Positions 14,750 to 61,454 are shown, counted from the first letter of the stretch. The stretch is 64,000 nucleotides of DNA from Methanobacteriota archaeon (GCA_014240055.1 JAAZXP010000002.1:10040-74039); one strand, 5' to 3'. The notes: generated by a model from the letters alone, not told the origin. Translations and numbers: made by a program.

Positions 14750-15268
14750 GTGGATAATGGAACGGCCTTAGAAGAAATTAAAAAACAAATAGAAAGTTTA
14801 GAGAGTAATCAGATTATTCTAATAGTAGTGGTTGCTGTAATATTACTCTATCTTGTTCTAACAAAAACACAAAGAGGTAGAGACGTGAGAAAAAAATTTA
14901 GAATTCTACCTAAGCTAATTCCATTAGAAGATGAATATGAAGCGGAAATTGAAGAACCAGAAAATCTTGATGGTAGTAACAGGCAACTCAAAGGAGAAAT
15001 TATTGAAAATGAACATGATATTCTGAATAGACTATTGGGAAATAACGAACCAGAAAAATTAGATGGATTTAATGAAGAAGATGCCGTAATTTTTAAAGAA
15101 CAAGAAGAAACAATACCACTTCCTAATCAAAATTTTGAAGATATGAAAGATCATAATAACTCTGCAAGTGAAAACCAAGAATACTGTGCCTCATGCAATA
15201 AACCGGTGAAAACTGAATGGAAAGCCTGCCCTTTTTGTGGTGAATTTCTCGAGATTTATGAAGACTAA
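14750..15268 (+). CDS. small membrane-anchored protein with cytoplasmic C-terminal zinc ribbon
   Basis: GTG start. One TM helix (IILIVVVAVILLYLVL), an acidic linker, and a C-terminal CASCNKPVKTEWKACPFCG. Its 3' end overlaps the convergent gene 15265..17451 by 4 nt. Confidence 0.45.
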   Translation: MDNGTALEEIKKQIESLESNQIILIVVVAVILLYLVLTKTQRGRDVRKKFRILPKLIPLEDEYEAEIEEPENLDGSNRQLKGEIIENEHDILNRLLGNNEPEKLDGFNEEDAVIFKEQEETIPLPNQNFEDMKDHNNSASENQEYCASCNKPVKTEWKACPFCGEFLEIYED

Positions 15269-21585: not shown

Positions 21586-22530
21586 ATGAACAACTCCGGA
21601 AAAACAAAAGAAATAGAAGTAGAAGAGTTGACAGAATGTACTGAATGTAAATCTGAACATATCGTTCGAGATTACAAGCGTGGAGAGATAACTTGTAGTA
21701 ACTGCGGATTAGTTGTTGATGGACAAGTAATTGATCAAGGGCCTGAATGGAGAGCCTTCGACTCTGAGCAAAGTGAAAGAAGAGCAAGAGGGGGAGCACC
21801 CATGAGTGTTATGGTTCACGATAAAGGGCTTTCAACAGATATCGGCTGGGGTGGGCGAGACATATATGGAAACAATGTTCCAACCAGAAACCGATCTCAA
21901 GTTTATAGAATGAGGAAATGGCAAAGTCGAACTAGAGCCTCAAATTCAGCAGACAGGAACCTAGCTCAGGCGTTAACTGAGTTAAATCGATTAGCATCAA
22001 AGATAGGACTACACCGACAAGTTAGAGAAGAAGCTGCTATGCTTTACAGAAGGGCAGTTCAAGACAACTTAGTCAGAGGACGTTCTGTCGAAGGTGTAGC
22101 TGCTGCAGCATTGTATGGCGCTTGCAGAAGATGTGAAGTCCCAAGAACTTTAACCGAAATTACTGAAGCCTCACGAGCATCCAAGAAAGAAGTTGGAAGA
22201 ACTTACCGTTATATTTCAAGGGAATTAAGGCTAAACTTACAACCGGCTTCACCATCGGTTTATATTGTACGATTTTGTAGAGAATTAGAATTACCAGGTA
22301 ATGTAGAAAGTGCTGCAATAAACATACTAAACCAAGCTATCGAAGCTGAATTGACATCTGGAAGAGGTCCAACTGGTGTTGCAGCTGCTGCAATCTATAT
22401 CGCATCAGTAGTATACAATAAAAGAAAAACGCAAAAAACCATTGCAGATACAGTCGGAGTTACTGAAGTAACTATTAGAAATCGTTACAAGGAATTAGCC
22501 AAAAATCTAGACATTGTAGTATACAAGTGA
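21586..22530 (+). CDS. tfb: transcription initiation factor IIB (TFB)
   Basis: N-terminal zinc ribbon CTECKS...CSNCG followed by two cyclin-fold repeats. 314 aa. Confidence 0.9.
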
Positions 22531-34357: not shown

Positions 34358-34933
34358 TTGGCCACTGTCGAACAGGAATTATTATACGCCATTCGTGCTA
34401 TTGAAGTTCTTCTGGAATCTGGCGTTGGTATTGCTGAAGCAATGAAGCATATTGCCGATGAAGATTATGGTGAGCTGAGCACAATTTTTAAACAAATATT
34501 TTCAGACACAGATGGAGGTCGGAACTTTAGTGATGCAATACGTACTCAAATGAGAAGTACTGATTCATCCGGTCTAAGAAAAGTTCTATCTACTTTGATT
34601 ATGTCAATTGAAGAAGATACGAATGTTATTGACCGCTTAAGATCTATTGCAGACAAAGAAGCAAGAGAACGACGTGTAAGTTTAGATACATTCATTGAAG
34701 GATTGACTGCGACATCTGAACAGTTTCTAATTGTATCGATTCTAATTCCAATTATTGTAGTAATTGGGGCAGTTGTAAACGGAATAATAGAATCTGCAAA
34801 AGCTGCAGGCGGTGGATTTCTTGGTAATACACCTGAAATGCCAACTGTATGTGTACCAATTTTATTTGGTATAGCTAGTATAATTATTGTTGGAATGGTA
34901 TTTCAAACTAAAGCAAGGGAGCCTGGAGTATGA
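34358..34933 (+). CDS. T2SSF-domain (TadB/FlaJ half-like) membrane protein
   Basis: Cytoplasmic helical N-domain followed by 2 TM helices. TTG start. Confidence 0.55.
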   Translation: MATVEQELLYAIRAIEVLLESGVGIAEAMKHIADEDYGELSTIFKQIFSDTDGGRNFSDAIRTQMRSTDSSGLRKVLSTLIMSIEEDTNVIDRLRSIADKEARERRVSLDTFIEGLTATSEQFLIVSILIPIIVVIGAVVNGIIESAKAAGGGFLGNTPEMPTVCVPILFGIASIIIVGMVFQTKAREPGV

Positions 34934-35694
34934 GCATACTAGACGATTTGTTCAGTGGAGATGGAATGGGCGATATCTATGGCCTCATATGGATTGGATT
35001 AGGAATATGGGCTGCTGTTGGACTTTTCTTTTACATTCCTGCCAAAAGAAAATTAGACCGAATTAATGAATTGGAAATGGTATGGCCTGATGTTCTAGCT
35101 GATTTAGCTGAAGAATTAAGAGCTGGAATGGGTGTAGAATCTGCATTAGATGCAATTTCACGTTCGAGGAGCGATCGTATGGGTGTTATGCTTAAAGCTG
35201 CAGTTGAAAGAATGAGAGACGATGGTTTTGGAATGGCAATGAAAGACTTTGCTAAGAAAACTGAATCTCCTATGATTTCAAGAATTGTTAGTATCCTGAA
35301 TGTCGCATTAGGTTCATCTGGAAGCTTTGCTACTACTCTCGAAAATATATCTGAAGAATTCTGGGAAATATATATGCTACGTAAAGAAAGAATTACCAAA
35401 ACACAAAGTACTGCAAACTTTATTCTATGGGGAGGATCAATTATCTGTCCTGTCCTCTTAGGAATAATTGTCGCAGTATTTGGAAGTGGAAAAGCTGGAT
35501 CTATTACATTAGATGTAAAATTAGATGTATTGAACCAAGCTATGTTTTTCTACATGATGGTTTTAGGCGCTGGAGGTGTGTGGATGCAATCTGTAATTTT
35601 ACAAACTACTAAAACGGCAATATGGAGAATGCCAATGTATATGTTCTTAGCAACAACTGTACTTCTATTATCTCTAAAAATATCTATAGTATAA
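34930..35694 (+). CDS. T2SSF-domain (TadC/FlaJ half-like) membrane protein
   Basis: TM helix, then a cytoplasmic helical T2SSF-like domain (LADLAEELRAGMGVESALDAI...), then 3 TM helices. Confidence 0.6.
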   Translation: MSILDDLFSGDGMGDIYGLIWIGLGIWAAVGLFFYIPAKRKLDRINELEMVWPDVLADLAEELRAGMGVESALDAISRSRSDRMGVMLKAAVERMRDDGFGMAMKDFAKKTESPMISRIVSILNVALGSSGSFATTLENISEEFWEIYMLRKERITKTQSTANFILWGGSIICPVLLGIIVAVFGSGKAGSITLDVKLDVLNQAMFFYMMVLGAGGVWMQSVILQTTKTAIWRMPMYMFLATTVLLLSLKISIV

Positions 35695-35696
35695 AC

Positions 35697-36929
35697 ATGG
35701 AACAAGGACGAATTATTGAAAAATATGATACCGCAAATATAGTCGAGAGACCTGGTTCTCAACGGCCTCTTTATCAAGTTACAAAAGCAACCAGTTCTCC
35801 TCAATATGGAGCATTGAAACCTCTTTTGGACGACGATAATTTAGAAGAAATAATGTACAATCATCCTGAAAGGGCAATTATGGTGGCTCATAGAAAGCAC
35901 GGAATGTGCGTGACTAACGTTAAAATGACTGGAGATGAAGCTACAGCCATAATCAAAAGAGTGGCTAAATATGTTGGAAGAAATATAGGTCCTGGAAATT
36001 TATTATTAGATGGAAGATTACCTGATGGAAGTCGTGTAAATGCAACAATCCCGCCTGTTTCTCCAAATGGTCCAACAATGACCATTAGAAAACAAATGAG
36101 CGACCCGTTAACTGTAGTGGACTTGATGAAATTTGGAACAATGTCTCCTCGTTTAGCTTCACTATTATGGATGTTTACGGATGGAATGGGAGCAGCACCC
36201 TCTAATATCCTAGTAGCTGGAGGAACTGGTTCTGGAAAAACTACAACTCTAAATGTTTTAGGATTATTTATCCCTGCTAAAGACAGATTAATTACAATTG
36301 AAGATGTTACTGAAGTTCAATTAAAACATGAACACCATGTACAACTTGAAACCTTCAACTCTACAAAACCTGAAGAGCCTGAAGTTAATATGGACTCATT
36401 ATTGAAGAATACCTTGCGAATGAGGCCTGATCGCATTATTGTTGGTGAAGTTAGAGGGCCTGAAGCTAAAACTCTGTTTACTGCAATGAATACTGGTCAC
36501 GAAGGTTGTTTTGGAACAGTACATGCTAATACTGCTCAAGAAACAGTTTCAAGATTAATTAATCCACCTATGGAAGTTCCACCAATAATGATGAATGCCT
36601 TACATTTGATCATTATGCAAAGTCGTATTGCTGTAGGAGGAAAACAAATACGAACTATAACTGAAGTTTCTGAATTAGCTGGACTAGAGGGCTCAAAGCC
36701 TAGATTGAATACGCTGTTCAAATGGAATGGTCAAACTAATAAATTAGAAGAAACTGGAGTTCCTAGTAAATTAAGAGAACGGATTTCTAAAGCTGCAGGA
36801 ATTGCACCAAGGCAATTTGATGAGATGGCACAAAATAGACAGAAAATTCTTGAATCTTTAGTTCAAAGAGGCTACAACGATATTAAGCAAGTCAGTACTG
36901 TCGTTCAAAATTATTACGCTAAGATGTAA
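35697..36929 (+). CDS. type IV filament/secretion ATPase (CpaF/TadA/VirB11 family)
   Basis: Walker A GGTGSGKTTTLN, Asp box, Walker B and His box (RPDRIIVGEVRG...TGHEGCFGTVHANT). Start re-assigned to the ATG 2 nt after the upstream stop; the tracked start at 35622 would overlap by 73 nt. Confidence 0.8.
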   Translation: MEQGRIIEKYDTANIVERPGSQRPLYQVTKATSSPQYGALKPLLDDDNLEEIMYNHPERAIMVAHRKHGMCVTNVKMTGDEATAIIKRVAKYVGRNIGPGNLLLDGRLPDGSRVNATIPPVSPNGPTMTIRKQMSDPLTVVDLMKFGTMSPRLASLLWMFTDGMGAAPSNILVAGGTGSGKTTTLNVLGLFIPAKDRLITIEDVTEVQLKHEHHVQLETFNSTKPEEPEVNMDSLLKNTLRMRPDRIIVGEVRGPEAKTLFTAMNTGHEGCFGTVHANTAQETVSRLINPPMEVPPIMMNALHLIIMQSRIAVGGKQIRTITEVSELAGLEGSKPRLNTLFKWNGQTNKLEETGVPSKLRERISKAAGIAPRQFDEMAQNRQKILESLVQRGYNDIKQVSTVVQNYYAKM

Positions 36930-51522: not shown

Positions 51523-51693
51523 AATTACATACACTGATATGAAATTTGATTCATTATTAGGACATATGTCAAACCAAAATATATTGTTGCTATGTTTGTT
51601 AATTATTGGAGCCACACAATTGCATAAGATAGGGGTTTAAGTGAACCGACGGCCTTATAGCGGGTTGTTGGCATGTATATGTCCGTTGAGTTA

Positions 51694-53292
51694 ATGAAAT
51701 ATATAATTGTAACCGGCGGTGTCCTTTCCGGATTAGGTAAAGGAATAACCTCATCTTCTGCAGGACTATTACTACAATGCGCAGGCTACAAAGTAACTGC
51801 CGTAAAAATGGATCCATATTTGAATGTTGATGCAGGCACAATGAATCCATATGAACACGGTGAAGTCTTTGTTATGAAGGATGGAGCTGAAGTTGATTTA
51901 GACCTTGGAAATTATGAACGATTTTTACACTGCAACTTAACAAGTGAACACAATATTACTACTGGAAAAGTTTACAAAAGAGTCATAGAAAAGGAGAGAC
52001 ATGGAGATTATCTCGGTCAAACAGTTCAAATAATTCCTCACGTAGTCAGAGAAATTGTTGATGGAATGAGAAAGGCTGCTGAAGATTCAAAGGCAGATGT
52101 TTGTATGGTGGAATTTGGAGGAACTGTAGGCGATATTGAATCAATGCCGTTTATGGAAGCTGGCCGTCTTTTGAGTAGGGAAGAAGGGAAAGAGAATGTA
52201 ATGTACATCCATACTACTCTTGTCCCAGTTGTAGGTTCTGTTGGAGAACAAAAGACTAAGCCAACACAACATTCAATTAAAGAATTACAAGGACTTGGAA
52301 TAAGGCCCGACATTATCGTTGGAAGAAGTAATGATATGTTAGACGAAGATATTGCTACAAAAATTGCTTTCTTCGCAGATATACCACGAGAAGCAGTTAT
52401 TTCAGCTCCAGATGCACAATCTATCTATGATGTACCTTTAATGTTCTTAGAACAGGGATTACATGAATTGATAGAAAAAAGACTTGGACTAAAGACAAAA
52501 AAACCAGATGTTACAAAGTGGAAAGATTTTGCAAAACGCGTATCTAATGGGGGAGAAGAAATCGAAATTGCTTTAATTGGAAAATATACAGCTCTAAAAG
52601 ATTCATATATCTCGCATAAAGAATCTCTTAGATATGCTGGAGCAGTTCTAGGCTGTAGAGTGAAAATTAGATGGATAGAAGCACCAGATTTAGAAGATAG
52701 TGGATCTACCAAGGACCTTGAAGGTGTAAATGGCATTCTTGTTCCCGGAGGATTTGGAAATAGAGGTGCTGAAGGTAAAATTATGAGTGCTAAATGGGCC
52801 AGGGAACAGAATATCCCATACCTTGGAGTTTGTTTTGGTTTTCAATTAGCTACAATTGAATTTGCACGTAATGTTTTAGGCCTCAAGGGTGCTAATTCTG
52901 CTGAACTCGATCCAAAAAGTCCACATCCCGTTGTCAATATACTCCCTGAACAAGAAGGTGTAGATGATATGGGGGCTACTATGAGATTAGGAGATCATGA
53001 TGTAAATCTTAGTAAAGGAAAAGCTAGGGCGCTTTATGGTAAAAATACAATCTCTGAAAGGCATAGACATCGTTATGAAATAAATCCTGAATACATCGAG
53101 CAAATTGAAGCGAAAGGGCTAAAATATACTGGAAGAGACATCAGTGGAAGAAGAATGGAAATACTAGAACTTGAAGGCCATCCCTATTTTGTAGCATCCC
53201 AATTTCATCCTGAATTCAAATCTAGACCTGATGACCCATCTCCTTTACATCTCGGTTTGGTAAAGGCTGCTCTAGCCCATAAAAAAGGATAA
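51694..53292 (+). CDS. pyrG: CTP synthase
   Basis: MKYIIVTGGVLSGLGKG N-terminus and C-terminal glutaminase domain (GVCFGFQ). The tracked start is 7 codons upstream. Confidence 0.9.
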   Translation: MKYIIVTGGVLSGLGKGITSSSAGLLLQCAGYKVTAVKMDPYLNVDAGTMNPYEHGEVFVMKDGAEVDLDLGNYERFLHCNLTSEHNITTGKVYKRVIEKERHGDYLGQTVQIIPHVVREIVDGMRKAAEDSKADVCMVEFGGTVGDIESMPFMEAGRLLSREEGKENVMYIHTTLVPVVGSVGEQKTKPTQHSIKELQGLGIRPDIIVGRSNDMLDEDIATKIAFFADIPREAVISAPDAQSIYDVPLMFLEQGLHELIEKRLGLKTKKPDVTKWKDFAKRVSNGGEEIEIALIGKYTALKDSYISHKESLRYAGAVLGCRVKIRWIEAPDLEDSGSTKDLEGVNGILVPGGFGNRGAEGKIMSAKWAREQNIPYLGVCFGFQLATIEFARNVLGLKGANSAELDPKSPHPVVNILPEQEGVDDMGATMRLGDHDVNLSKGKARALYGKNTISERHRHRYEINPEYIEQIEAKGLKYTGRDISGRRMEILELEGHPYFVASQFHPEFKSRPDDPSPLHLGLVKAALAHKKG

Positions 53293-53335: not shown

Positions 53336-53650
53336 ATGTCAGACGATAATGATAATAATGATGAATTCACCGATTTCAAAGGTAGAGCCGATTCTCCTGA
53401 AGATGGTTTCACAACTTCTGAAATGATTACTGGATTCGGAATGCTCCTTATTTTTGTAGGATTCATATTTGGTTTAATCAGACTTTTAGGCCTAAAAAAC
53501 GGAGAGATTCCTGCTGATTATGACAACCACCTTGATCAATTGTACCTAAGTTATCTTATAATGTTTGTAGGAATATTGATAACCAGTCTATTAGGATTCG
53601 GTGGAATGTTCAAAAGAACTATGTCTTCTTTCCTCGGTTCTAACGATTAA
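53336..53650 (+). CDS. small 2-TM membrane protein with acidic N-terminus
   Basis: 104-aa ORF. Its 3' end converges on the pilin-like genes. Confidence 0.3.
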   Translation: MSDDNDNNDEFTDFKGRADSPEDGFTTSEMITGFGMLLIFVGFIFGLIRLLGLKNGEIPADYDNHLDQLYLSYLIMFVGILITSLLGFGGMFKRTMSSFLGSND

Positions 53651-54036
53651 AAAGTTAATAATTTATCGAAACTTACGGACATTGTATTGTCATTGAGCTC
53701 ATAAGTATAAACGAAGGTGTGAGTTCCATTGCTTTCTGTTGCTGATGTTAAAGTATAGAGTAAAGAGTATCCGCGTGAGGCAAGGATTGACTCAAATTCT
53801 TCTGTGGCAGTATCAAAAGACATGGATAATTCTACACCATCTGCAGCATTCAAAACTTCATACTCTAAGGCTAATGAAAAACTATTCTCTAATGAAGTAA
53901 TTATTGGAGTTATATCGTGTCTTTCTCCTTGATGATTACCCAAATTTACTGAATGTGTGATTGTACTAGTAACTGCAATTAGAGTAATTGACATTAAAAG
54001 TCCAGAAACTAGAAGTAATTGTGCTTGATCTCTCAT
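53647..54036 (-). CDS. pilin-like secreted protein (putative class III signal peptide)
   Basis: N-terminus MRDQA|QLLLVSGLLMSITLIAV: short charged leader, small residue, then a ~20-aa hydrophobic helix. Confidence 0.35.
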   Translation of the reverse strand: MRDQAQLLLVSGLLMSITLIAVTSTITHSVNLGNHQGERHDITPIITSLENSFSLALEYEVLNAADGVELSMSFDTATEEFESILASRGYSLLYTLTSATESNGTHTFVYTYELNDNTMSVSFDKLLTF

Positions 54037-54488
54037 TAATCCTCCCTATATCCATACCAAAGCTGCAAATTTAATTCCCAGAGTTCGTCGTCGGCCCAAA
54101 CGACTCTGAAAGTTTGAGTAACTGGTCCGGTGTGGACCGTTCTATCAACAAGAGTCTCTGTTTGACCTTCATGCGTCCCTTCCAACCTATATGACAAGGA
54201 AGAAGAAAGACCTGAATCCAAATATTGCTTTATTGCCGTATTATTGTCTGTAGCTAACCACCAGGATAGTGTAGAATTATGATGTGTTGCAGCAATCGTT
54301 GAGTCTGTTGGAACCCATTCATCTAGTATCTCCAGAATTTCTAATCCTGTAAAATAAAGATCATTTTCCTCAAAATTATTAGCATCACTTGTGGGAAGAA
54401 CACTAACTGCAACATTGATTGTGGAAGTGAATAAAGTAGCTACTAACAAAACTTCCAAAACATGCATTTGACCTTTAGTATTTTTCAT
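54036..54488 (-). CDS. pilin-like secreted protein (putative class III signal peptide)
   Basis: N-terminus MKNTKG|QMHVLEVLLVATLF: KG followed by a hydrophobic helix with Glu near +5/+6. Confidence 0.4.
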   Translation of the reverse strand: MKNTKGQMHVLEVLLVATLFTSTINVAVSVLPTSDANNFEENDLYFTGLEILEILDEWVPTDSTIAATHHNSTLSWWLATDNNTAIKQYLDSGLSSSLSYRLEGTHEGQTETLVDRTVHTGPVTQTFRVVWADDELWELNLQLWYGYRED

Positions 54489-54504
54489 AATTATTAAACT
54501 CCAA

Positions 54505-55740
54505 TTAAATCTGTGGAGTGTTTACTGAGGTTGCAATACCTATTATTTCGAAAATAAACCAACCCAAGAAGAGAAGGAAAGATGCTCGACTAAATGCAGA
54601 ATATAGCTTACCTGTAGACATGAAGCCTGCTGCAAGTCCGTTACCTATTCCTTGAACCATAAGACTGTAAAGGAACATACTTGAAATCCAAACTTCATTC
54701 ATCTCCCTAATTGTTAGATTACCTATAGACATACTACCGCCGCCTGTGGCTGCTGAAGAATCTACAATTGCAGGAATAAAAGTACTAGCAAGAACTAAAA
54801 TAATACCTAAGTAAACAAAGAAAGAAGCGTAAATAACAGTCACATAACTGCCTACTTCTTGTCTTCTTTCATTCTCTAAAGCCTTTATTTCTCTAGCATC
54901 AAAAGAGGCTGCCAAAAGAATATCCGAAATTCGACCTCCGGCCCTATTTGCTTCATCAACCATTCTTACAGCTCTTGTTACAATTGGAGAGGTTACTCTT
55001 TCAGTAAACATTTCTAAAACTTCACCGAAAGAAACTCCCCACGAAATTTGTGAAGCCATTTTGTTTACCTCATCATTAAGATTACCATATTCTCCTTTAG
55101 CTAAAGTTTGGATAGCTACAGTCATACTAAGTCCTCCTTTCCAGTATTCAGCAAGATCTCTTAAAAAATCGGGAAACTTTTCCTCAACACGTGCTCTAAT
55201 TGCATCTTGCCTTTTTCCATACCATCCATAAGGATACATCAAGGCAATTAAACCAAAAACAATGTAATCTATAGCTGAAATTTCAGGATAACTACGAAGC
55301 CATATATCTGCAGTCATCTCTTCATCAATGCCATTTACAAAAGGATCTTTATCTTTAGTTTCATTATTTGTAATTGCAAAAGGTGACCCTAAACCAGTAA
55401 TTAATTCATATCTTTCTCCATTCTGTGGTTCAGCATATGTATTTCCTAAAGTAAAAGTAAATCGACCATCATTCAAATTCCAAGGATTATCAAATTGTTT
55501 ATCATTATCTCTATCTTCCATTGGGGTGAGAGCATCAGTTCTTATGTCTTCATTGGCAATTGCAAAAAATAAGAGTGCTAATACTATTGAAAAAGCTGCA
55601 ACTAGGGCTGGGCCCCAATCTGCATCTTTATTTTTGACACTTAACCAACGATTGACTTTCCAATACTCCATCCAACGTCTTTTGACACCAGTACGGCGAT
55701 CTGCGTAGACTTTATTCTGAAGGTTCCCTTTTATTGACAT
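54505..55740 (-). CDS. T2SSF-domain membrane protein (FlaJ/TadB-like half)
   Basis: TM helices plus a cytoplasmic helical domain (WGVSFGEVLEMFTERVTSPIVTRAVRMVDEANRAGGRISDIL). Confidence 0.6.
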   Translation of the reverse strand: MSIKGNLQNKVYADRRTGVKRRWMEYWKVNRWLSVKNKDADWGPALVAAFSIVLALLFFAIANEDIRTDALTPMEDRDNDKQFDNPWNLNDGRFTFTLGNTYAEPQNGERYELITGLGSPFAITNNETKDKDPFVNGIDEEMTADIWLRSYPEISAIDYIVFGLIALMYPYGWYGKRQDAIRARVEEKFPDFLRDLAEYWKGGLSMTVAIQTLAKGEYGNLNDEVNKMASQISWGVSFGEVLEMFTERVTSPIVTRAVRMVDEANRAGGRISDILLAASFDAREIKALENERRQEVGSYVTVIYASFFVYLGIILVLASTFIPAIVDSSAATGGGSMSIGNLTIREMNEVWISSMFLYSLMVQGIGNGLAAGFMSTGKLYSAFSRASFLLFLGWFIFEIIGIATSVNTPQI

Positions 55741-56711
55741 TAGTCAGTTGAAACCTCCTGACTTAGTGAATAAAATAAACCTGAAAATACTATTTGGATA
55801 ACTGGAAATCCTCCAAAAACTAGAAGGTACATGTGTATCTGTTCAAGCTGCATTCCAGCTCCAGAAACCCAGAATGTAATAACTGCAATAATCATTGCGA
55901 AAATAGGCAGTGCGACAGCTACAACCACATAAGCTTCGGAAAATAAGGCCATTTGCTGTAAAACATCTTTAACATGGCTTCTATTTTGTTGACCATAATA
56001 TTCTGCTCTGTTTAAGAAATAAAGCTTTAGATTTCCTCCTGCTGTTACAGTCCCAATAATTCCCTGAACAAATTCAGCGAATCTTTCAGAGGGTGTTCTG
56101 TCTACAGCTTCCTTTAATGTTGTTACTAAATCCCGACCCATAAACTCCATACTATGATAGATCCAAGCCGCCTCATGCGCAATTTCCCCATATATATCTT
56201 TATTTCGAGCAAGAGATTTGAAAGTCATAGAAGGCGTCGCATTAGCTGCTGCCATTGCTGATACATAACTAGCTGCGAAAGGAATTTGTTTGTCCATATC
56301 TGAAGCTCTACTACTCTCCAACAAAGCTGGAGTTAACCACTGAACCAATGCCACTAAACCAGGTAATGCCAGCAACAATACTGCAGCTATAACTATTTCA
56401 ACAAAGAGGGAAATTGAATAAGTTGGTATTATCGTTTCTCCAGTTTGGCTATTGATAGTAGGTGCTGCATTCGGATCTTCCATAGACTCTATTTGAGGAA
56501 TTACTACGCCAAGAAGGAGCAATGTAACGCCCAGACCAACTAAAAAAGTTAAAACTACTTGCATTACTGTAGTAGCCACATAATCTTCTGCTAAAAGTGG
56601 AATACGGGCTTTAACTAATTGATTTTTGAAAGATAATGAATCTTTTGTTAGCATGCGGCCTAACCAACCGAATAAAACTCTGCTGAATGTTTCAAAACCC
56701 GTCAGAGCCAT
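55740..56711 (-). CDS. T2SSF-domain membrane protein (FlaJ/TadC-like half)
   Basis: TM helices plus cytoplasmic FKSLARNKDIYGEIAHEAAWIYHSMEFMGRDLVTTLKEAV. Confidence 0.55.
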   Translation of the reverse strand: MALTGFETFSRVLFGWLGRMLTKDSLSFKNQLVKARIPLLAEDYVATTVMQVVLTFLVGLGVTLLLLGVVIPQIESMEDPNAAPTINSQTGETIIPTYSISLFVEIVIAAVLLLALPGLVALVQWLTPALLESSRASDMDKQIPFAASYVSAMAAANATPSMTFKSLARNKDIYGEIAHEAAWIYHSMEFMGRDLVTTLKEAVDRTPSERFAEFVQGIIGTVTAGGNLKLYFLNRAEYYGQQNRSHVKDVLQQMALFSEAYVVVAVALPIFAMIIAVITFWVSGAGMQLEQIHMYLLVFGGFPVIQIVFSGLFYSLSQEVSTD

Positions 56712-58954
56712 TTATGCCACCAACGTGGATTGGCAGAGCGTTGTACTCTACTAGCTAAATTAGTTTTCAAACTTATCAACGCCTTAGACTGACGTGTTTC
56801 TTCTTTTTCAACTGCTGAGGATTTCTGACCTTCAGCACTTTTATCAATAATCATTGCTGCTTTGGATCTAGCGTTCATTTCAGACAATACTGCTTTCAGA
56901 ATTCTACGGCCTTCAACCTCATTAAGGGAGGAAACATCACCAATATCGACTTCTTTGGTTAATGGAACTAATTGTTTCAATGGCACATAATATGCCTGGT
57001 CTTTCAATAGATCATTTTGTAATTTTACTTCTATATTTTCACGCCTAGATTCTTCATTGGCAATTAACTTAGCTCTCTTAGTTGGATCATCAGTTTGAGA
57101 GATTTTAGCATCATTTTTTGCTCGAGTGGCTTGTTCTTTAGCTTCACGAGTTTGATACTTCTGCCTGATCTTAGGTGGGAAATCCCCAACATCTACTTCT
57201 TCATCATCTCTAGACAAGTCCATCTCTCTTTCTTCAACTTTGCGACGACGTTTCTTACCGCCTACTTGCATATCTTCGTAAACTTGACGCATAACATCTT
57301 CTGGATGAACATAATACTCAGCCACAACACGTGCAAAATCTTTGTAATCTCTAATACTTTTCTTTAAACACCATTCAATAACCAATTGACGTCTCTTAGT
57401 TTCATCCATTATCTCAACGCGGTTGAGATTTGCCTTCATCATAATTTTCTCAAAAATATATGATTTACCTGTGAAAACATATTCGTCAATAGTATTGTCC
57501 CATCTGAAAGCTTCATTGGTTAATAATTCATGTGAATGAGGATCTATTCCTATAATTTCAACAATTGCTTTATTTCTTCGGACACGCTTACCACCAACAC
57601 GAGTCTGAATCTGAATTGAAATTCCATCTAGTGCCGGAATTAACACTCTAGGAATCTCAATAGGTTTGTTTTCAAGACGATGTACTAAACTCTGAATAGA
57701 ATCTGCGTGGAAAGTGGAATAAGTTGTGTGTCCTGTAGCCATAGCCTGGAATAGAACATAAGCTTCAGCACCTCTAATCTCACCTACAATAATGTATTCT
57801 GGACGTTCACGAAGTGCTGCCCTTAACAAATCATACATGTCAACTTCTCCGGCTGCTTTTTCACCAGAACCTCCAGATTCTCCTCCAAAACCTTGCCTAG
57901 TACAACCTGGAATCCAGTTTGGATGAGGTAAATTCAATTCTCTTGTTTCTTCAATACTCACAATTTTGTGTTGCCATGGAAGGAAAAGAGAACAAGCATT
58001 CAAAGATGTCGTCTTTCCCGAAGCCGTTCCACCTACGAAAAGCATCGACATACCATATTGCATTGCCAACCAAAAGAATGCAATTTGCATCGATGAAAAT
58101 GTTTTAAATTCGAGTAAATCTACTGGAGTGAAGGGTTCATCTCTAAAGCGCCGTATCGTAAATGTTGAACCTTTTGTTGAAACTTCACGTCCAAGTGTCA
58201 TAACAATACGTGACCCATCCATCAAAGTTGCATCCAATAATGGTTCTGCAATGGAAATATGCTTTCCACAGCGTTGAGCCATACGAATAATGTACTGTTC
58301 TAATACTAATTCATCTTCCCACATTACATTTGTTCGTAAAGATTCAAATCTTCTGTGGTAAACGAATATTTCAACACCAGGCCCATCACAAGAAACATCC
58401 TCAATATTCGGATCTTTCATCATGGTATCTATTTTTCCGTAACCAATCAAATCTCTTTCAATGTAATAATGTATTTTTTCTCGATTACTTTTACGTGATT
58501 TTAATCTATAACTATCTAAAATATCGTCTACTGCTTGTTTCAAAAAATCTTCTTGCGTCTCGTCGAGCGTCTCGCGATCAATATTGAGAGCCCTCTGGAG
58601 AACTAATTTAATTGTATCTAAATCTTCTGTCTCTTGCTTTGAAGCTTTTGGTTCGACTACATAATAAAAACGAGAATAATCTCTTTTATCAAACAAAACT
58701 CTAACATAAGAATAAGGTGGATAAACTGGATAAGTATCTAACTCTTCAAAATCTTCACCTATCTCAATATCATCCATGACCAAGTCATGAATTACACCAT
58801 CTTTTTCGGCAGCTTTACGCTTCCTTTCTTCCGCTTTACGCTGTTTGTTAAGTTTACGACGCTGAAGCCAAGAAAGTTTAGACTCATCAATCTCTTCCTC
58901 TTGCTCACCGAGTAAACTCGAAGCATTCTCCATTGTTTCTTTGGCTGCGCTCAT
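56702..58954 (-). CDS. type IV filament assembly ATPase (FlaI/TadA/GspE-VirB11 family) with long charged N- and C-terminal extensions
   Basis: Walker A GGTASGKTTSLN, Walker B/His box RPEYIIVGEIRGAEA...TGHTTYSTFHADS. About 60 aa of K/R/E-rich N-terminus and about 230 aa of K/E/R-rich C-terminal tail. 750 aa in total. Confidence 0.8.
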   Translation of the reverse strand: MSAAKETMENASSLLGEQEEEIDESKLSWLQRRKLNKQRKAEERKRKAAEKDGVIHDLVMDDIEIGEDFEELDTYPVYPPYSYVRVLFDKRDYSRFYYVVEPKASKQETEDLDTIKLVLQRALNIDRETLDETQEDFLKQAVDDILDSYRLKSRKSNREKIHYYIERDLIGYGKIDTMMKDPNIEDVSCDGPGVEIFVYHRRFESLRTNVMWEDELVLEQYIIRMAQRCGKHISIAEPLLDATLMDGSRIVMTLGREVSTKGSTFTIRRFRDEPFTPVDLLEFKTFSSMQIAFFWLAMQYGMSMLFVGGTASGKTTSLNACSLFLPWQHKIVSIEETRELNLPHPNWIPGCTRQGFGGESGGSGEKAAGEVDMYDLLRAALRERPEYIIVGEIRGAEAYVLFQAMATGHTTYSTFHADSIQSLVHRLENKPIEIPRVLIPALDGISIQIQTRVGGKRVRRNKAIVEIIGIDPHSHELLTNEAFRWDNTIDEYVFTGKSYIFEKIMMKANLNRVEIMDETKRRQLVIEWCLKKSIRDYKDFARVVAEYYVHPEDVMRQVYEDMQVGGKKRRRKVEEREMDLSRDDEEVDVGDFPPKIRQKYQTREAKEQATRAKNDAKISQTDDPTKRAKLIANEESRRENIEVKLQNDLLKDQAYYVPLKQLVPLTKEVDIGDVSSLNEVEGRRILKAVLSEMNARSKAAMIIDKSAEGQKSSAVEKEETRQSKALISLKTNLASRVQRSANPRWWHKWL

Positions 58955-58958
58955 TTTA

Positions 58959-59435
58959 TCATCCAGTGGTTAACTTGACAACCTTTAGATTATCATCATA
59001 GTATATGACTATATAAGAAGACGTCGATATCAATGGTGAACCGCTAGCAGTCTCTATTGCAGTAGCTGGAAATAGAGGGAATGTGACCTCGAATTCCCCA
59101 CCTCTAGGCTGCATTGTAGTAACCTTGAGACCCTCGGCGGTGCCTGCCAACTTGTACTTTATTCCATGATTTATTGATTCGATACCTGTATTCAATTTGA
59201 TAACTGGTGAAGAATCAGGATATTCTCTTACAGTAGTTAATAAATCTTCAACTGACAATTGAAAATAAAGTGCCAACTGTTCAGCCTCTTCCTGTGCAGT
59301 ATTTGCCATGTTTCCATTGAGCATTGTAGTGGAAGTAAGCATTATTGATGATAAAATTAAAATCGAAACGGCGATTGTGTAAACATAACCAATTAATTCT
59401 GATGCTGCTGAATCATCGTAAGCTAAATTTGACAT
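58959..59435 (-). CDS. pilin-like protein (putative class III signal peptide)
   Basis: N-terminus MSNLAYDDSAA|SELIGYVYTIAVSILIL. Confidence 0.35.
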   Translation of the reverse strand: MSNLAYDDSAASELIGYVYTIAVSILILSSIMLTSTTMLNGNMANTAQEEAEQLALYFQLSVEDLLTTVREYPDSSPVIKLNTGIESINHGIKYKLAGTAEGLKVTTMQPRGGEFEVTFPLFPATAIETASGSPLISTSSYIVIYYDDNLKVVKLTTG

Positions 59436-60483
59436 GTATTGTCCTCTCTAATAATCTAAAATCAAATGGCGTGGATTGTGAGTATAATATATCTTGTTCA
59501 ATACCTTCACTTTGAAATGCCGAATGAGCTACCAATGAGTCCGATCTTTCAAATTGATAATCTGCTGCGTCAAAACTATTGTAAGCCATGTAATGCCTTT
59601 GGAATGCTGATGAACTCTCCCCGTCAAAAGCGATTCGTAAACTGTAAATGTTAAGAGAAACATCGTTTCCTCCCTGGTTGCGAATATCAAAATTAAAGTT
59701 ACCAGCCATTAATGATTTAATAGACGAAGAAAGATTGTAGTCCGTTTGATAAAATGTTAATGAATCATAAGTGTCTTCCTTCCCAACTTCTTCATTTATA
59801 ACTGATCTAGTAAGAGGTTGTGAACTAACATAAAATTGACCACCTGGTTCTTTAGAAACAACACCGCCGTTTAGCATCCTCATCTTGAAAACACCTGAAA
59901 CTGAAGCATATTTGTAAGATAGTGAATCGGTACCATAAATGAAAAAACCTCCTACTTGTGTTGTGTTTTTAGTACTAGTATATGTTCCTTGAACACCGTA
60001 ATCAAGAGGTGGGAAATCTGAAATATACGAATCTAAAGAATCTCCAGTCCACTGCGTCCCATCTGGATAAATTAAAGTAACTCTATATTCCTCTACGATA
60101 TCTAAATCATCCTTTATTGCAAGAGATTCTGAACCCATTTTTACTCCTACTATTTTTGGAGATGACCAAGGAACTGCAGTATAATAATATCTTATTTCAT
60201 CTAAGTTTTCACGTTGAACAAAAGTACCTGAACTAAAGGAGATTGTTGAAGTGCGAGATGCACCCTCTCCTTGTGCAAGAACGTGATCTAAATCGGTATC
60301 AAAATTCAAAAGGTTATTTTGAGCTGAAGTATATATTGCGTAAGCCTCATTTTGCTGTATTTGAGGAATGCCCCAAGCTAGCATAGTTCCGGTGACTGTA
60401 AGCATAATTGCCAATATTAAAATGGTACCAATTACGGGACTCACTCCTTCATCGGATTTTGTTAAGGATAGCTGACGCTGCAC
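59413..60483 (-). CDS. archaeal type IV pilin-like protein (DUF1628/PF07790-type N-terminus)
   Basis: N-terminus ...SDEGVSPVIGTILILAIMLTVTG matches the G-VSPVIG-hydrophobic signature of archaeal class-III-signal pilins. 356 aa with Ser/Thr/Asn-rich ectodomain. Confidence 0.5.
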   Translation of the reverse strand: MQRQLSLTKSDEGVSPVIGTILILAIMLTVTGTMLAWGIPQIQQNEAYAIYTSAQNNLLNFDTDLDHVLAQGEGASRTSTISFSSGTFVQRENLDEIRYYYTAVPWSSPKIVGVKMGSESLAIKDDLDIVEEYRVTLIYPDGTQWTGDSLDSYISDFPPLDYGVQGTYTSTKNTTQVGGFFIYGTDSLSYKYASVSGVFKMRMLNGGVVSKEPGGQFYVSSQPLTRSVINEEVGKEDTYDSLTFYQTDYNLSSSIKSLMAGNFNFDIRNQGGNDVSLNIYSLRIAFDGESSSAFQRHYMAYNSFDAADYQFERSDSLVAHSAFQSEGIEQDILYSQSTPFDFRLLERTIHVKFSLR

Positions 60484-60524
60484 ACGAGCTCATCTAATAG
60501 GGGTTCAAAAAGTATTATGTTAAA

Positions 60525-61454
60525 CTAATGGCTATTATTTTCTAGCCATTTCTCGACATCTATAGCTGCCATACAACCCATACCTGCTGCAGTTATAGCC
60601 TGACGATATCTAGTGTCTACTACGTCGCCACCTGCAAATACTCCCGGTATGCTAGTCATTGTATTTTCTTTCCAAAGAAGATATCCACTCTCATCAGTTT
60701 CTAATTGATCATTCAAAAAGGAAGTCATCGGTTTGTGTCCAATTGCGATAAAGGCGCCGTCGCACTCTAACTTTTCCTCTGAACCTGTTTTTGTATTTAC
60801 TAAAAGAGCTCCTTCAAAATTCCCTTCAGAACCCAACCATTCTTTTATGCTGTAATTTAGTTTCCAATCAATCTTTGAATTTGCTTTAGCTCTGTCTGCC
60901 ATTATTTGTGATGCACGTAATCCCTCTCTTCTATGCACTATAGTTACTTTACTGCAGAATTTTGTTAAAAATGTTGCTTCTTCCATAGCAGAATCTCCAC
61001 CTCCAATAACAATTACTTCTTTATCTCTAAAAAAAGCACCATCGCAGGTTGCGCACGTTGAAATCCCACGGCCTTTATGAACGTCTTCATTTATTGCATC
61101 TAACCAAATTGCCTCAGCTCCTGTAGTAATTATTATTGAGTTAGCCAAATGGACCTCCTTTCCAACATTTAATTTAAAAGGTCTCTGAGAGAAATCAACC
61201 GAATCTACATTTTTATCAATTATTTCACAACCAAACCTAGAAGCTTGCGACCTCAGTTCAAGCATCATCTCAGGTCCACCAATACCTTCAGGATATCCTG
61301 GGAAATTTTCAATATCACTTGTTAACATCAGCTGGCCACCACTTGCAAATCCTGCAAACAAAGTAGGATTAAGCATCGCTCTTCCTGCATACAACCCGGC
61401 AGTATACCCTGCTGGACCTGAACCAATAATTATCAAATCTTTAACTTCAGTCAT
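60525..61454 (-). CDS. trxB: thioredoxin reductase
   Basis: GSGPAGYTAG FAD motif and redox-active CATCDG. 309 aa. Confidence 0.85.
   Translation of the reverse strand: MTEVKDLIIIGSGPAGYTAGLYAGRAMLNPTLFAGFASGGQLMLTSDIENFPGYPEGIGGPEMMLELRSQASRFGCEIIDKNVDSVDFSQRPFKLNVGKEVHLANSIIITTGAEAIWLDAINEDVHKGRGISTCATCDGAFFRDKEVIVIGGGDSAMEEATFLTKFCSKVTIVHRREGLRASQIMADRAKANSKIDWKLNYSIKEWLGSEGNFEGALLVNTKTGSEEKLECDGAFIAIGHKPMTSFLNDQLETDESGYLLWKENTMTSIPGVFAGGDVVDTRYRQAITAAGMGCMAAIDVEKWLENNSH

Follow-up and report, generated by a model that had tools for sequence, protein, structure and literature searches.

Euryarchaeal type IV pili of clade 2, which come with their own pilin sets, have already been catalogued by Makarova, Koonin & Albers 2016 (PMC4858521), with the PilB4-C4-type locus of Haloferax volcanii as an example (Fig. 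4B therein). These authors also noted that many clade-2 loci carry two, i.e., split, tadC genes. Pairs of single-T2SSF platform genes are found as well in the Epd pilus of Methanococcus maripaludis and in bacterial Tad/Flp (T4cP) systems, where they arose by gene fission (PMC6668835). As haloarchaeal comparison loci we used those on Haloferax mediterranei pHM500 and on a Halobaculum halophilum plasmid, in which DUF7289, DUF7266, DUF7288 and DUF7261 genes follow a PilB(PilB3_C)-PilC pair. The large all-beta signature pilin of clade-2 systems, arCOG02911, is what we take to be Pfam DUF7289.

The archaea of Marine Group III (MGIII) have not been cultured, and little has been learnt about the biology of their surface. 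We analyzed a 64-kb stretch of DNA, in the following the window, whose host is an MGIII euryarchaeote (Poseidoniia). With a probability of about 0.78, we read seven of its genes as a chromosomal operon that encodes a type IV pilus-like surface filament belonging to clade 2, with a pilin set of its own.

Results

Locus layout and conservation

Seven ORFs occupy positions 53647-60483 on the minus strand of the window, with exactly the sizes and coordinates that an earlier note on this DNA had given. In transcription order, they encode pilin-like proteins of 356 aa (59413..60483, GTG start) and 158 aa (58959..59435), a T2SSE ATPase of 750 aa (56702..58954), T2SSF platform proteins of 323 aa (55740..56711) and 411 aa (54505..55740), and two further pilin-like proteins of 150 aa (54036..54488) and 129 aa (53647..54036). 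According to the ORF listing, neighbours either overlap by 1–23 nt or are 4–16 nt apart, i.e., the packing is operon-like. The locus is flanked by pyrG (51673-53292, plus strand) on one side and by trxB (60525-61454, minus strand) on the other, and trxB is followed by trmI and then rps15. Between trxB and the first pilin gene, the 41-nt intergenic region (60484..60524, minus strand) contains an A/T-rich, TATA-like stretch, TTTAACATAATAC, a possible candidate for the operon promoter; alternatively, the operon may be transcribed by read-through from trxB.

We compared 39 MGIII loci. In every one of them that was long enough, the gene order of operon and flanks (rps15-trmI-trxB / pyrG) was the same, which bears out the earlier note's view that the locus, placed between core genes, is a fixed part of the chromosome. 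Even the most divergent MGIII clade has the seven ORFs intact and in order on a 170-kb contig, and the operon is kept from deep-sea to epipelagic MGIII. Identity across the loci was 74–97% for the ATPase and 36–92% for the pilin-like genes, whose faster evolution is expected for surface-exposed subunits. We rejected a decayed locus or pseudogene, as nearly all loci have intact ORFs; only the locus from the Cayman92 MAG differs, with a frameshift in its 323-aa platform gene. The seven-gene operon is real and strongly conserved, and chance is ruled out.

Assembly ATPase and platform proteins

Assignment of the third gene to the FlaI/TadA family of ATPases, as proposed in the earlier note, agrees with its T2SSE match (PF00437, 1.6e-29, 103 bits vs cutoff 24.9). 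PilB3_C scored 34.3 bits (cutoff 27), and PF23989 and PF23990 are precomputed on all ATPase orthologs listed. Walker A (GTASGKT), Walker B (YIIVGE) and His box (HTTYSTFH) are invariant across MGIII ATPases. The best solved relative was Archaeoglobus fulgidus GspE (afGspE, PDB 2OAP/2OAQ), with 420 bits for 2OAP (2e-124, query residues 60–560), ahead of FlaI (277 bits) and CpaF (130 bits). In NCBIfam, the FlaI model NF058587 was the best match (3e-121), with a score of 405.7 bits that missed the equivalog cutoff of 550, and TIGR03819 reached 141 bits, under its cutoff of 373.

The N-terminal region of the ATPase is charged, and a basic C-terminal extension of 189 residues with 40 K+R (about residues 562–750) ends in NPRWWHKWL. 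This extension is conserved across MGIII, with 93% identity over the last 15 residues; afGspE, a euryarchaeal secretion-superfamily ATPase of 511 aa, lacks such a stretch of about 190 aa. We found no similarity between the basic MGIII tail and the acidic C-terminal extension of the haloarchaeal homologs. A tblastn match in Hfx. mediterranei that seemingly covered the tail was not upheld. As the Halobaculum ATPase aligns significantly only to residue 561 and the C-terminal tail of the Hfx. mediterranei ATPase is likewise acidic, we treat the tail as MGIII-specific.

Both platform proteins contain one T2SSF domain (PF00482, cutoff 25.2), with 6.8e-13 for the 323-aa and 6.2e-12 for the 411-aa protein and bit scores of 49.1 and 46.0, respectively. 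In NCBIfam, the 323-aa protein corresponds to the N-terminal half (positions 37–223 of 555 in the FlaJ model, 39–223 of 484 in UpsF) and the 411-aa protein to the C-terminal half (positions 218–454 of 465 in FlaJ, 286–417 of 484 in UpsF). The platform is hence truly split, as had been claimed. The platform proteins, too, missed the FlaJ equivalog cutoff. The start codon of the 411-aa gene overlaps the stop codon of the 323-aa gene, and the 411-aa protein carries an extra TM segment at its N-terminus as well as a ~95-aa loop. In the MGIII loci the 323-aa half is a separate ORF.

Pilin-like proteins

Class III signal peptides were judged by manual motif and conservation analysis of orthologs, i.e., by a short charged leader, G/A/S at −1, a charged residue at −2 and cleavage before a hydrophobic helix of ~20 aa (PMC4371748). 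Archaeal prepilin peptidases reportedly require the charged −2 residue, and both acidic −2 residues and +1 Gln occur at archaeal prepilin cleavage sites (PMC4371748). The earlier note had described four pilin-like genes. By these criteria, we see class III signal peptides in the 356-, 150- and 129-aa proteins; in the 158-aa protein, no charged residue stands at −2, and here the note was confirmed only in part.

In the 356-aa protein, the class III signal peptide is of the PibD type, MQRQLSLTKSDEG|VSPVIGT, with an E-G|V-S site. The AF2 model of this protein shows a long helix at the N-terminus plus an all-beta, Ig-like ectodomain with tandem Ig-like domains, for which a Foldseek search against the PDB returned nothing significant. 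The window protein scored 23.3 bits against DUF7289, under the cutoff of 27. PF23960 (DUF7289) is precomputed on many of its MGIII orthologs, and in hhalign the family aligned over 143 columns with haloarchaeal DUF7289 (E 1.2e-4).

The 158-aa protein starts with a hydrophobic helix. At its putative cleavage site, DDSA|ASELIGY (S-A|A-S), there is no charge at −2, and class III signal peptide and processing are therefore uncertain. DUF7266 matched the window protein at 0.07 and 11 of 14 MGIII orthologs, at best at 4.8e-5, all sub-threshold. The N-terminus aligns with haloarchaeal DUF7266 (RAAATTLGYALNL vs SAASELIGYVYTI); hhalign on this family was weak and did not separate DUF7266 and DUF7289.

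In the 150-aa protein, the class III site is MKNTKG|QMHVLEVLL (K-G|Q-M) with Gln at +1. The AF2 model has a long N-terminal helix and a globular alpha/beta ectodomain, which in structure comparison was nearer to PAS/Cache sensor domains than to any solved pilin. DUF7288 matched the window protein at 0.018, and relatives found with phmmer reach 27.7 bits vs a cutoff of 27. Distant DUF7288-like proteins lie mostly on contigs of <2 kb, and their context was informative only in a non-MGIII contig, L120, where the genes T2SSF-T2SSF-DUF7288-like stand in the same sub-order.

The 129-aa protein has a very short leader, and its site in the window copy is MRDQA|QLLLVSGLL (Q-A|Q, Gln at +1), with K/R-[AG]|Q (K-A|Q, K-G|Q, R-G|Q) in most orthologs. 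It is tentatively DUF7261-like: 6 of 13 orthologs match this family, at best at 0.04 and at the N-terminus only, and hhalign of the family with DUF7261 gave 17% over the N-terminal 20 residues. Its gene directly follows the DUF7288-like gene, in the same order as in haloarchaea.

DUF7287 matched none of the seven proteins in Pfam, nor the adjacent 104-aa ORF, and hhalign probabilities were ≤0.3%. HMMs built from MGIII orthologs gave weak matches to the ORFs of the haloarchaeal loci, and so did hhalign against 2-sequence haloarchaeal alignments; since the matches lie mostly in the N-termini, neither method alone supports family assignment. The four pilin-like proteins appear to correspond to DUF7289, DUF7266, DUF7288 and, weakly, DUF7261, in three of the four cases by way of sub-threshold or indirect HMM matches.

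Peptidase, major pilin and a second module

An A24 prepilin peptidase was not found in the 64-kb window: none of its membrane ORFs has a GxGDxK motif, and all ORFs with at least three predicted TM segments belong to other families. We found no gene for a small PilA-type pilin in the operon and no further ORF with a class III signal peptide in the window, where the 129-aa protein is the smallest pilin-like product.

About 20 kb away from the operon, at 34358-36929, the window contains a second module that the earlier note had missed. It consists of an ATPase and two platform genes, without pilin genes. Its ATPase scored 219 bits against CpaF vs 232 bits against afGspE, and by this comparison it is the more Epd/Tad-like of the two modules.

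Comparison with described filament systems

The MGIII and haloarchaeal clade-2 ATPases both combine T2SSE with PilB3_C, and their cores are 43% identical. Common to both systems are also a T2SSF platform, an operon-encoded set of dissimilar pilin-like proteins with matching N-terminal motifs, and a DUF7288-like gene directly before a DUF7261-like gene. The platform is encoded by two genes in MGIII, whereas it is fused (674–679 aa) in the haloarchaeal loci. The DUF7289/DUF7266-like pair of MGIII lies upstream of the ATPase and in reversed internal order, whereas in haloarchaea the pilin genes are all downstream of it. Haloarchaeal operons include DUF7287 as a fifth member; MGIII has neither this gene nor a small Pilin_N gene nearby. 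The DUF7289-like protein has 356 aa in MGIII vs 243–265 aa in haloarchaea. The long N-terminal extension of the haloarchaeal ATPases is absent from the MGIII ATPase, whose C-terminal tail is basic, in contrast to the acidic tail in haloarchaea. Finally, the MGIII locus is chromosomal among housekeeping genes, whereas the haloarchaeal comparison loci reside on megaplasmids. As a further comparator, we discarded a locus of Methanoculleus palmolei in which the ATPase stands beside a PstS-like class III protein and the other neighbours are unrelated.

With Epd and Tad/Flp systems, the MGIII operon shares the two single-T2SSF platform genes and a presumed role in adhesion. The sites of the 150- and 129-aa proteins also resemble EppA-type cleavage sites with +1 Gln (PMC4371748). 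Unlike in Epd/Tad, however, the ATPase is far nearer to afGspE than to CpaF (420 vs 130 bits), the pilin set appears to be that of the haloarchaeal DUF72xx families, and the operon lacks a TadZ/FlaH-like second ATPase, a short Flp/EpdE-type major pilin and EppA. On these sequence grounds we assign the operon to the described euryarchaeal clade-2 type IV pilus class (PilB3/PilB4-type, own pilin set), because of its afGspE-like ATPase with PilB3_C and because the DUF72xx pilin set follows PilB-PilC in haloarchaea. The earlier description as a Tad-like pilus was thus right in proposing a type IV filament other than an archaellum, but its label was imprecise, since the system is of the clade-2 PilB3/PilB4 type.

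Discussion

In the mechanism that we propose, the four pilin-like preproteins would enter the membrane by way of their hydrophobic N-terminal helices. A PibD/EppA-type peptidase encoded elsewhere would then cut the short charged leaders at EG|VS, KG|QM and QA|QL; the 158-aa protein may stay uncleaved. A hexameric PilB-type ATPase would dock on the platform of two half-size T2SSF proteins, and ATP hydrolysis would drive extraction of the subunits from the membrane and their stacking via the conserved N-terminal helices into a filament. This order of assembly is presumed. Minor pilins and pseudopilins of bacteria offer an analogy, according to which the four subunits encoded in the operon most likely form a priming/tip complex and decorate the filament; this would leave the tandem Ig-like ectodomain of the 356-aa protein exposed. 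The bulk of the filament would probably consist of a small PilA-type pilin whose gene lies elsewhere.

By analogy with haloarchaea and methanogens, the filament most likely serves for attachment, to particles or to cells, rather than for swimming. Adhesion phenotypes have been described for haloarchaeal mutants in pilB-pilC genes of other loci (PMC6491452, PMC4292770), though the genetically tested loci are not orthologs of the MGIII pilin-set type. Given this work on haloarchaeal pilB-pilC systems, to call the system wholly uncharacterised, one of the options in the earlier note, goes too far.

Swimming has been read into these genes before. JGI names the ATPase 'flagellar protein FlaI', FlaI is its best NCBIfam match (3e-121), and Li et al. 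2015 (PMC4660358) list orthologous genes as 'flagellar proteins' and call MG-III motile. An archaellum has a homologous ATPase and platform and class III signal peptides in common with the MGIII operon. That the operon is one for an archaellum is nevertheless extremely improbable, since the ATPase stays below the FlaI equivalog cutoff (405.7 vs 550 bits), resembles afGspE more than FlaI and contains PilB3_C. Moreover, the platform is split, and the pilin-like genes appear to be members of DUF72xx pilin-set families rather than archaellin genes. We found no gene for FlaH, FlaF, FlaG, FlaC/D/E, FlaX or an archaellin in the operon or elsewhere in the 64-kb window, and the ±10 kb searched in 39 MGIII loci and in locus L047 had none either, which extends to the orthologous loci what had been claimed for this one. 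Suppl. Table 11 of PMC4660358 gives FlaH, FlaG, FlaF and FlaB for MG-II bins and none of them for MG-III bins. According to the same table, plume samples contained transcripts of the MG-III Cayman92 genes annotated CpaF, FlaJ, TadC, TadC, and separate, highly transcribed 'flagellin-like' genes are present in every MG-III bin. The gene order of the locus from the Cayman92 MAG matches that of the table, and the orthologous deep-sea MGIII operon has already been reported as transcribed 'flagellar genes' (PMC4660358). From its gene content, the operon is predicted to build a type IV pilus-like surface filament and not a swimming archaellum.

A short pseudopilus or surface-anchored assembly, be it bindosome-like, T2SS-like or a structure for substrate capture or sensing, would be made of the four operon subunits only; we consider it unlikely. 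Quite improbable is also a self-sufficient surface assembly for binding or sensing, in which the PAS/Cache-like ectodomain of the 150-aa protein and the tandem Ig-like domains of the 356-aa protein would be combined with the Trp-tipped basic ATPase tail as a lineage-specific control or anchoring module, and the true PilA-type pilus would be the product of the Epd/Tad-like module ~20 kb away. If this were true, MGIII would possess two type IV machines with distinct functions, among them a device of a new kind for substrate capture or sensing. The basic tail bears on DNA as well: strongly basic and conserved (189 residues, 40 K+R), it could bind nucleic acid, and type IV filaments import DNA in many lineages (PMC6668835). 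The tail, however, lies in the cytoplasm, whereas a pilus would bind DNA outside the cell. Genes for DNA translocation (Ced, ComEC-like, helicases) were not found in the operon or its flanks, and homology lends no support. A filament for DNA uptake or cell-cell DNA exchange (Ups/Ced-like or competence-pilus-like) instead of particle adhesion is therefore very improbable.

With a clade-2 type IV pilus-like filament as the reading that we prefer, genes that were earlier counted as 'flagellar' and taken as evidence for MG-III motility would form a type IV pilus operon without nearby archaellum partners. As the operon falls into an already described class, it is useful mainly to correct 'flagella/motility' annotations of MGIII. 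Its fixation between ribosomal, tRNA-modification, redox and nucleotide genes, together with its conservation from the deep sea to the epipelagic, makes a pilus-type filament look like a core trait of the order, which fits a lifestyle dependent on attachment to particles or cells. The understanding of type IV filaments remains unchanged by this placement, which adds no new kind. It would show the DUF7289/7266/7288(/7261) pilin set of haloarchaea in a distant lineage of planktonic archaea as well, and with the 356- and 150-aa proteins, confident structure models are now at hand for two DUF72xx families of unknown function.

A conserved seven-gene operon in MGIII

The ORF listing placed seven genes on the minus strand (53647–60483) at exactly the coordinates proposed in the earlier note. 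In transcription order they encode a pilin-like protein of 356 aa with a GTG start (59413–60483), a pilin-like protein of 158 aa (58959–59435), a 750-aa ATPase (56702–58954), two platform halves of 323 aa (55740–56711) and 411 aa (54505–55740), and two more pilin-like proteins of 150 aa (54036–54488) and 129 aa (53647–54036). Adjacent genes overlap by 1–23 nt or are separated by gaps of 4–16 nt, a spacing commonly seen in operons with translational coupling. One end of the operon faces pyrG across a 104-aa membrane ORF; trxB, trmI and rps15 lie at the other end. G+C content is uniform across the window (about 0.33–0.40) and its profile gave no sign of a foreign island.

We scanned one genome per species for the ATPase and obtained 39 loci, all from Marine Group III (MGIII) euryarchaeotes (Poseidoniia), including CG-Epi1, single-cell genomes and the deep-sea Cayman, Guaymas and ALOHA bins. 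In all loci that extended far enough, the order was rps15-trmI-trxB-[356-158-ATPase-323-411-150-129]-orf104-pyrG-MBL. ATPase identity was 74–97%, compared with 36–92% for the pilin-like genes. The homologs of the 356-aa protein with the lowest identity (36–38%) lie on a 170-kb contig that carries the identical seven genes and flanks. We conclude that the operon dates back to the ancestor of the order and is kept by purifying selection, which bears out the chromosomal fixation suggested earlier from the neighboring core genes.

The 104-aa ORF (53336–53650, plus strand) has an acidic N-terminus and two transmembrane helices. It is convergent with the last pilin gene, which it overlaps by 4 nt, and keeps its position in MGIII loci at 29–94% identity; its sole match was a weak one to DUF7550 (1.3e-3).

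The platform is split between two genes

The 323-aa and 411-aa proteins contain one T2SSF domain each and align to the N-terminal and C-terminal halves, respectively, of the FlaJ/UpsF models. The division of the platform into two genes, described from the sequence beforehand, was kept across MGIII loci. We therefore regard it as a true fission, and this conservation rules out a sequencing error as its cause. Many clade-2 loci have two tadC genes (PMC4858521), and such pairs have been shown to arise when a two-domain platform undergoes fission (Denise et al. 2019, PMC6668835). A metagenomic contig from outside MGIII showed the identical sub-order T2SSF-T2SSF-DUF7288-like, hence MGIII is not alone in combining a split platform with this pilin set. 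In the Cayman_92 MAG only (locus L027, 4792–5731), the 323-aa ortholog is broken into ORFs of 215 and 130 aa, through a frameshift introduced in assembly or through genuine disruption of the gene.

N-termini of the pilin-like proteins

The N-termini are the most conserved parts of the four pilin-like proteins. Their motifs, with the arrow marking the predicted cleavage position, read SE[DE][AG]↓[VIM]SP[VI]IGT (356 aa), K[GA]↓QMHVLEVLL (150 aa), [KRQN][AG]↓QLLLVSGLL (129 aa) and DDS[AG]A↓S[EQ]LIGYVYT (158 aa). Archaeal prepilin cleavage criteria are Gly, Ala or Ser at −1 and a charged residue at −2 (PMC4371748). The acidic −2 residue of the 356-aa protein is normal, given that the Haloferax volcanii PilA1 and PilA3 sites are D-A↓V-S (PMC4371748). 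The 150-aa and 129-aa proteins share a +1 Gln with EppA substrates, for which this residue is characteristic (PMC4371748). Motif reading hence agrees with class III signals in three of the four proteins proposed as pilin-like; processing of the 158-aa protein is uncertain because its −2 residue is uncharged. No further ORFs with class III signal peptides were found in the window.

Relation to haloarchaeal pilin families

Searching plasmids with tblastn, we found relatives of the 750-aa ATPase in haloarchaea. Two of these loci, on Haloferax mediterranei pHM500 and on a Halobaculum plasmid, share one arrangement, i.e., an ATPase (T2SSE plus PilB3_C), a fused T2SSF platform (674–679 aa) and then, in this order, the genes for DUF7287, DUF7288, DUF7261, DUF7266 and DUF7289, with a small Pilin_N gene standing separate. 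On pHM500, the intact 931-aa PilB-type ATPase ORF (locus L042, 5852–8647) is missing from the PLSDB gene table, probably through an omission in the table and not because it is a pseudogene.

The four pilin-like proteins of the window gave weak matches to exactly four of the five DUF families, and the MGIII locus has no DUF7287 counterpart. Their N-terminal motifs line up with those of the haloarchaeal families, with RAQAHTLEGL in haloarchaea versus KGQMHVLEVL in MGIII for DUF7288, RAQLLLVGAF versus QAQLLLVSGL for DUF7261, RAAATTLGYALNL versus SAASELIGYVYTI for DUF7266, and DRAVSDTLSF...GIGSLQE versus DEGVSPVIGT...GIPQIQQ for DUF7289. The 356-aa protein is a good candidate for DUF7289, with precomputed PF23960 matches on many MGIII orthologs and an hhalign alignment over 143 columns. 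The 150-aa protein is a fair candidate for a DUF7288-like protein: phmmer, run exhaustively against 1.84 billion representative proteins, returned only 26 clusters, of which the distant ones match DUF7288 and one reaches the gathering score. For the 158-aa protein we have moderate confidence in a DUF7266-like identity (matches in 11 of 14 orthologs, best 4.8e-5), and the 129-aa protein might, on a weak N-terminal match in 6 of 13 orthologs (best 0.04), be DUF7261-like.

An AlphaFold2 model of the 356-aa protein, built with 29 MGIII sequences (pLDDT 86.5, pTM 0.81), predicts a 56-residue N-terminal helix followed by an all-β ectodomain. A Foldseek search of the PDB with this model returned nothing significant. 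The predicted fold agrees with the large signature pilin of clade-2 systems, described by Makarova et al. as all-β and Ig-like.

The ATPase and its basic C-terminal extension

In domain profile searches the 750-aa ATPase matched T2SSE (1.6e-29) and PilB3_C, the latter with 34.3 bits against a cutoff of 27. Its Walker A, Walker B and His-box motifs do not vary within MGIII. The best NCBIfam match was the FlaI equivalog, at 405.7 bits below the cutoff of 550, and of the solved structures Archaeoglobus fulgidus GspE (420 bits) scored higher than Sulfolobus FlaI (277) and Caulobacter CpaF (130). A C-terminal extension (residues ~562–750, window 56702–57270) is conserved within MGIII and strongly basic, with 40 Lys and Arg in 189 residues. 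Its motifs include QVGGKKRRRKV and DLLKDQAYYVPLKQL, and its end, NPRWWHKWL, is near-invariant; over the final 15 residues (...RVQRSANPRWWHKWL) identity is 93%. The acidic tails of haloarchaeal homologs showed no detectable similarity to it. As a guess at its function, the tail might anchor the ATPase to the membrane or the platform.

A homolog 44% identical to this ATPase is encoded on the Methanoculleus palmolei chromosome (locus L040), together with Pst-permease-like genes. Upstream of them lies a gene for a 338-aa protein (5904–6920, plus strand) that carries a class III signal peptide of the archaeal kind, NENAVSPIVATLVL, and, after it, a region that on sequence alone resembles a phosphate-binding domain of the PstS type. 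This methanogen would then have an arrangement resembling a bindosome.

A second assembly module

The check for a prepilin peptidase revealed a second assembly module on the plus strand (34358–36929), consisting of a 191-aa T2SSF protein (34358–34933), a 254-aa platform C-terminal half, also T2SSF (34930–35694), and a 435-aa T2SSE ATPase (35622–36929). The latter is 34% identical to the 750-aa ATPase and scores nearly equally against A. fulgidus GspE (232 bits) and CpaF (219 bits). No pilin genes adjoin the module, which sits between ppdk with a Frag1-family gene and purM with aconitase, a synteny kept in about 25 MGIII metagenome contigs. It is nearer to Epd/Tad systems than the seven-gene operon is, and its substrates may be stand-alone pilins of the PilA type or the pilin set of that operon. 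The 64-kb window contains no A24 prepilin peptidase: the GxGDxK motif occurs in none of its membrane ORFs, and all ORFs with at least three predicted transmembrane segments were assigned to other families.

Place among archaeal pili and earlier flagella reports

Archaeal type IV pilus ATPases split into clades, of which clade 2, termed 'euryarchaeal', usually occurs in two copies per genome (Makarova, Koonin and Albers 2016, PMC4858521). One clade-2 type is PilA-based without pilins in the locus (PilB3-C3), the other, typified by PilB4, has its own pilin set, and a large all-β pilin is common to both (PMC4858521). The MGIII operon fits the PilB4 type, from which it differs in its split platform, two upstream pilin genes, lack of DUF7287 and of a local Pilin_N gene, and its ATPase tail. 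The type IV filament previously read as adhesive, Tad-like or uncharacterised is hence upheld and refined: the locus is a euryarchaeal clade-2 type IV pilus with its own pilin set, an already known class. Counting the second module, MGIII matches the picture given by Makarova et al. of two systems in euryarchaea. Type IV pilus loci often include TFIIB homologs (PMC4858521); the TFIIB (TFB) gene of the window (21586–22530, plus strand), about 30 kb from the operon, is probably the general factor.

Deep-sea MG-II and MG-III have been reported to carry 'flagellar genes' in operons and were called motile (Li et al. 2015, PMC4660358). Supplementary Table 11 of that study lists four consecutive genes for the MG-III bin Cayman92, i.e., CpaF ATPase, FlaJ, TadC and TadC, all with plume transcripts. 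In every MG-III bin, 'archaeal flagellin-like' genes with very high transcription are listed separately, and rows for FlaH, FlaG, FlaF and FlaB, present for MG-II bins, are absent for MG-III (Suppl. Table 11, PMC4660358). Locus L027, from the same MAG, agrees with this table: its ATPase, the fifth gene, precedes three platform ORFs owing to the frameshift in the 323-aa gene, and this break explains the three 'FlaJ/TadC' rows. L027 is probably the tabulated locus, with the contig number off by one from the locus tag. From this match, the operon had already been seen and was transcribed, but was filed under flagella. Our analysis thereby corrects the motility inference for MGIII and indicates that a pilus-type filament is a core trait of the whole order. 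The major pilin may be supplied in trans, and the separate 'flagellin-like' genes are good candidates for it.

Haloarchaeal pilB-pilC deletions reduced adhesion (PMC6491452, PMC4292770); the deleted loci were H. volcanii pilB1-C1 (clade 4C) and Halobacterium salinarum pil-1 (PilB3-type), the PilB4-type system not being among them. We infer that the MGIII filament could have an adhesive role. The window also encodes two large predicted secreted or surface proteins of 1228 aa (4425–8111, plus strand) and 728 aa (15265–17451, minus strand). Both have N-terminal hydrophobic segments and CARDB/NPCBM-associated domains and may be cell-surface or adhesion proteins.
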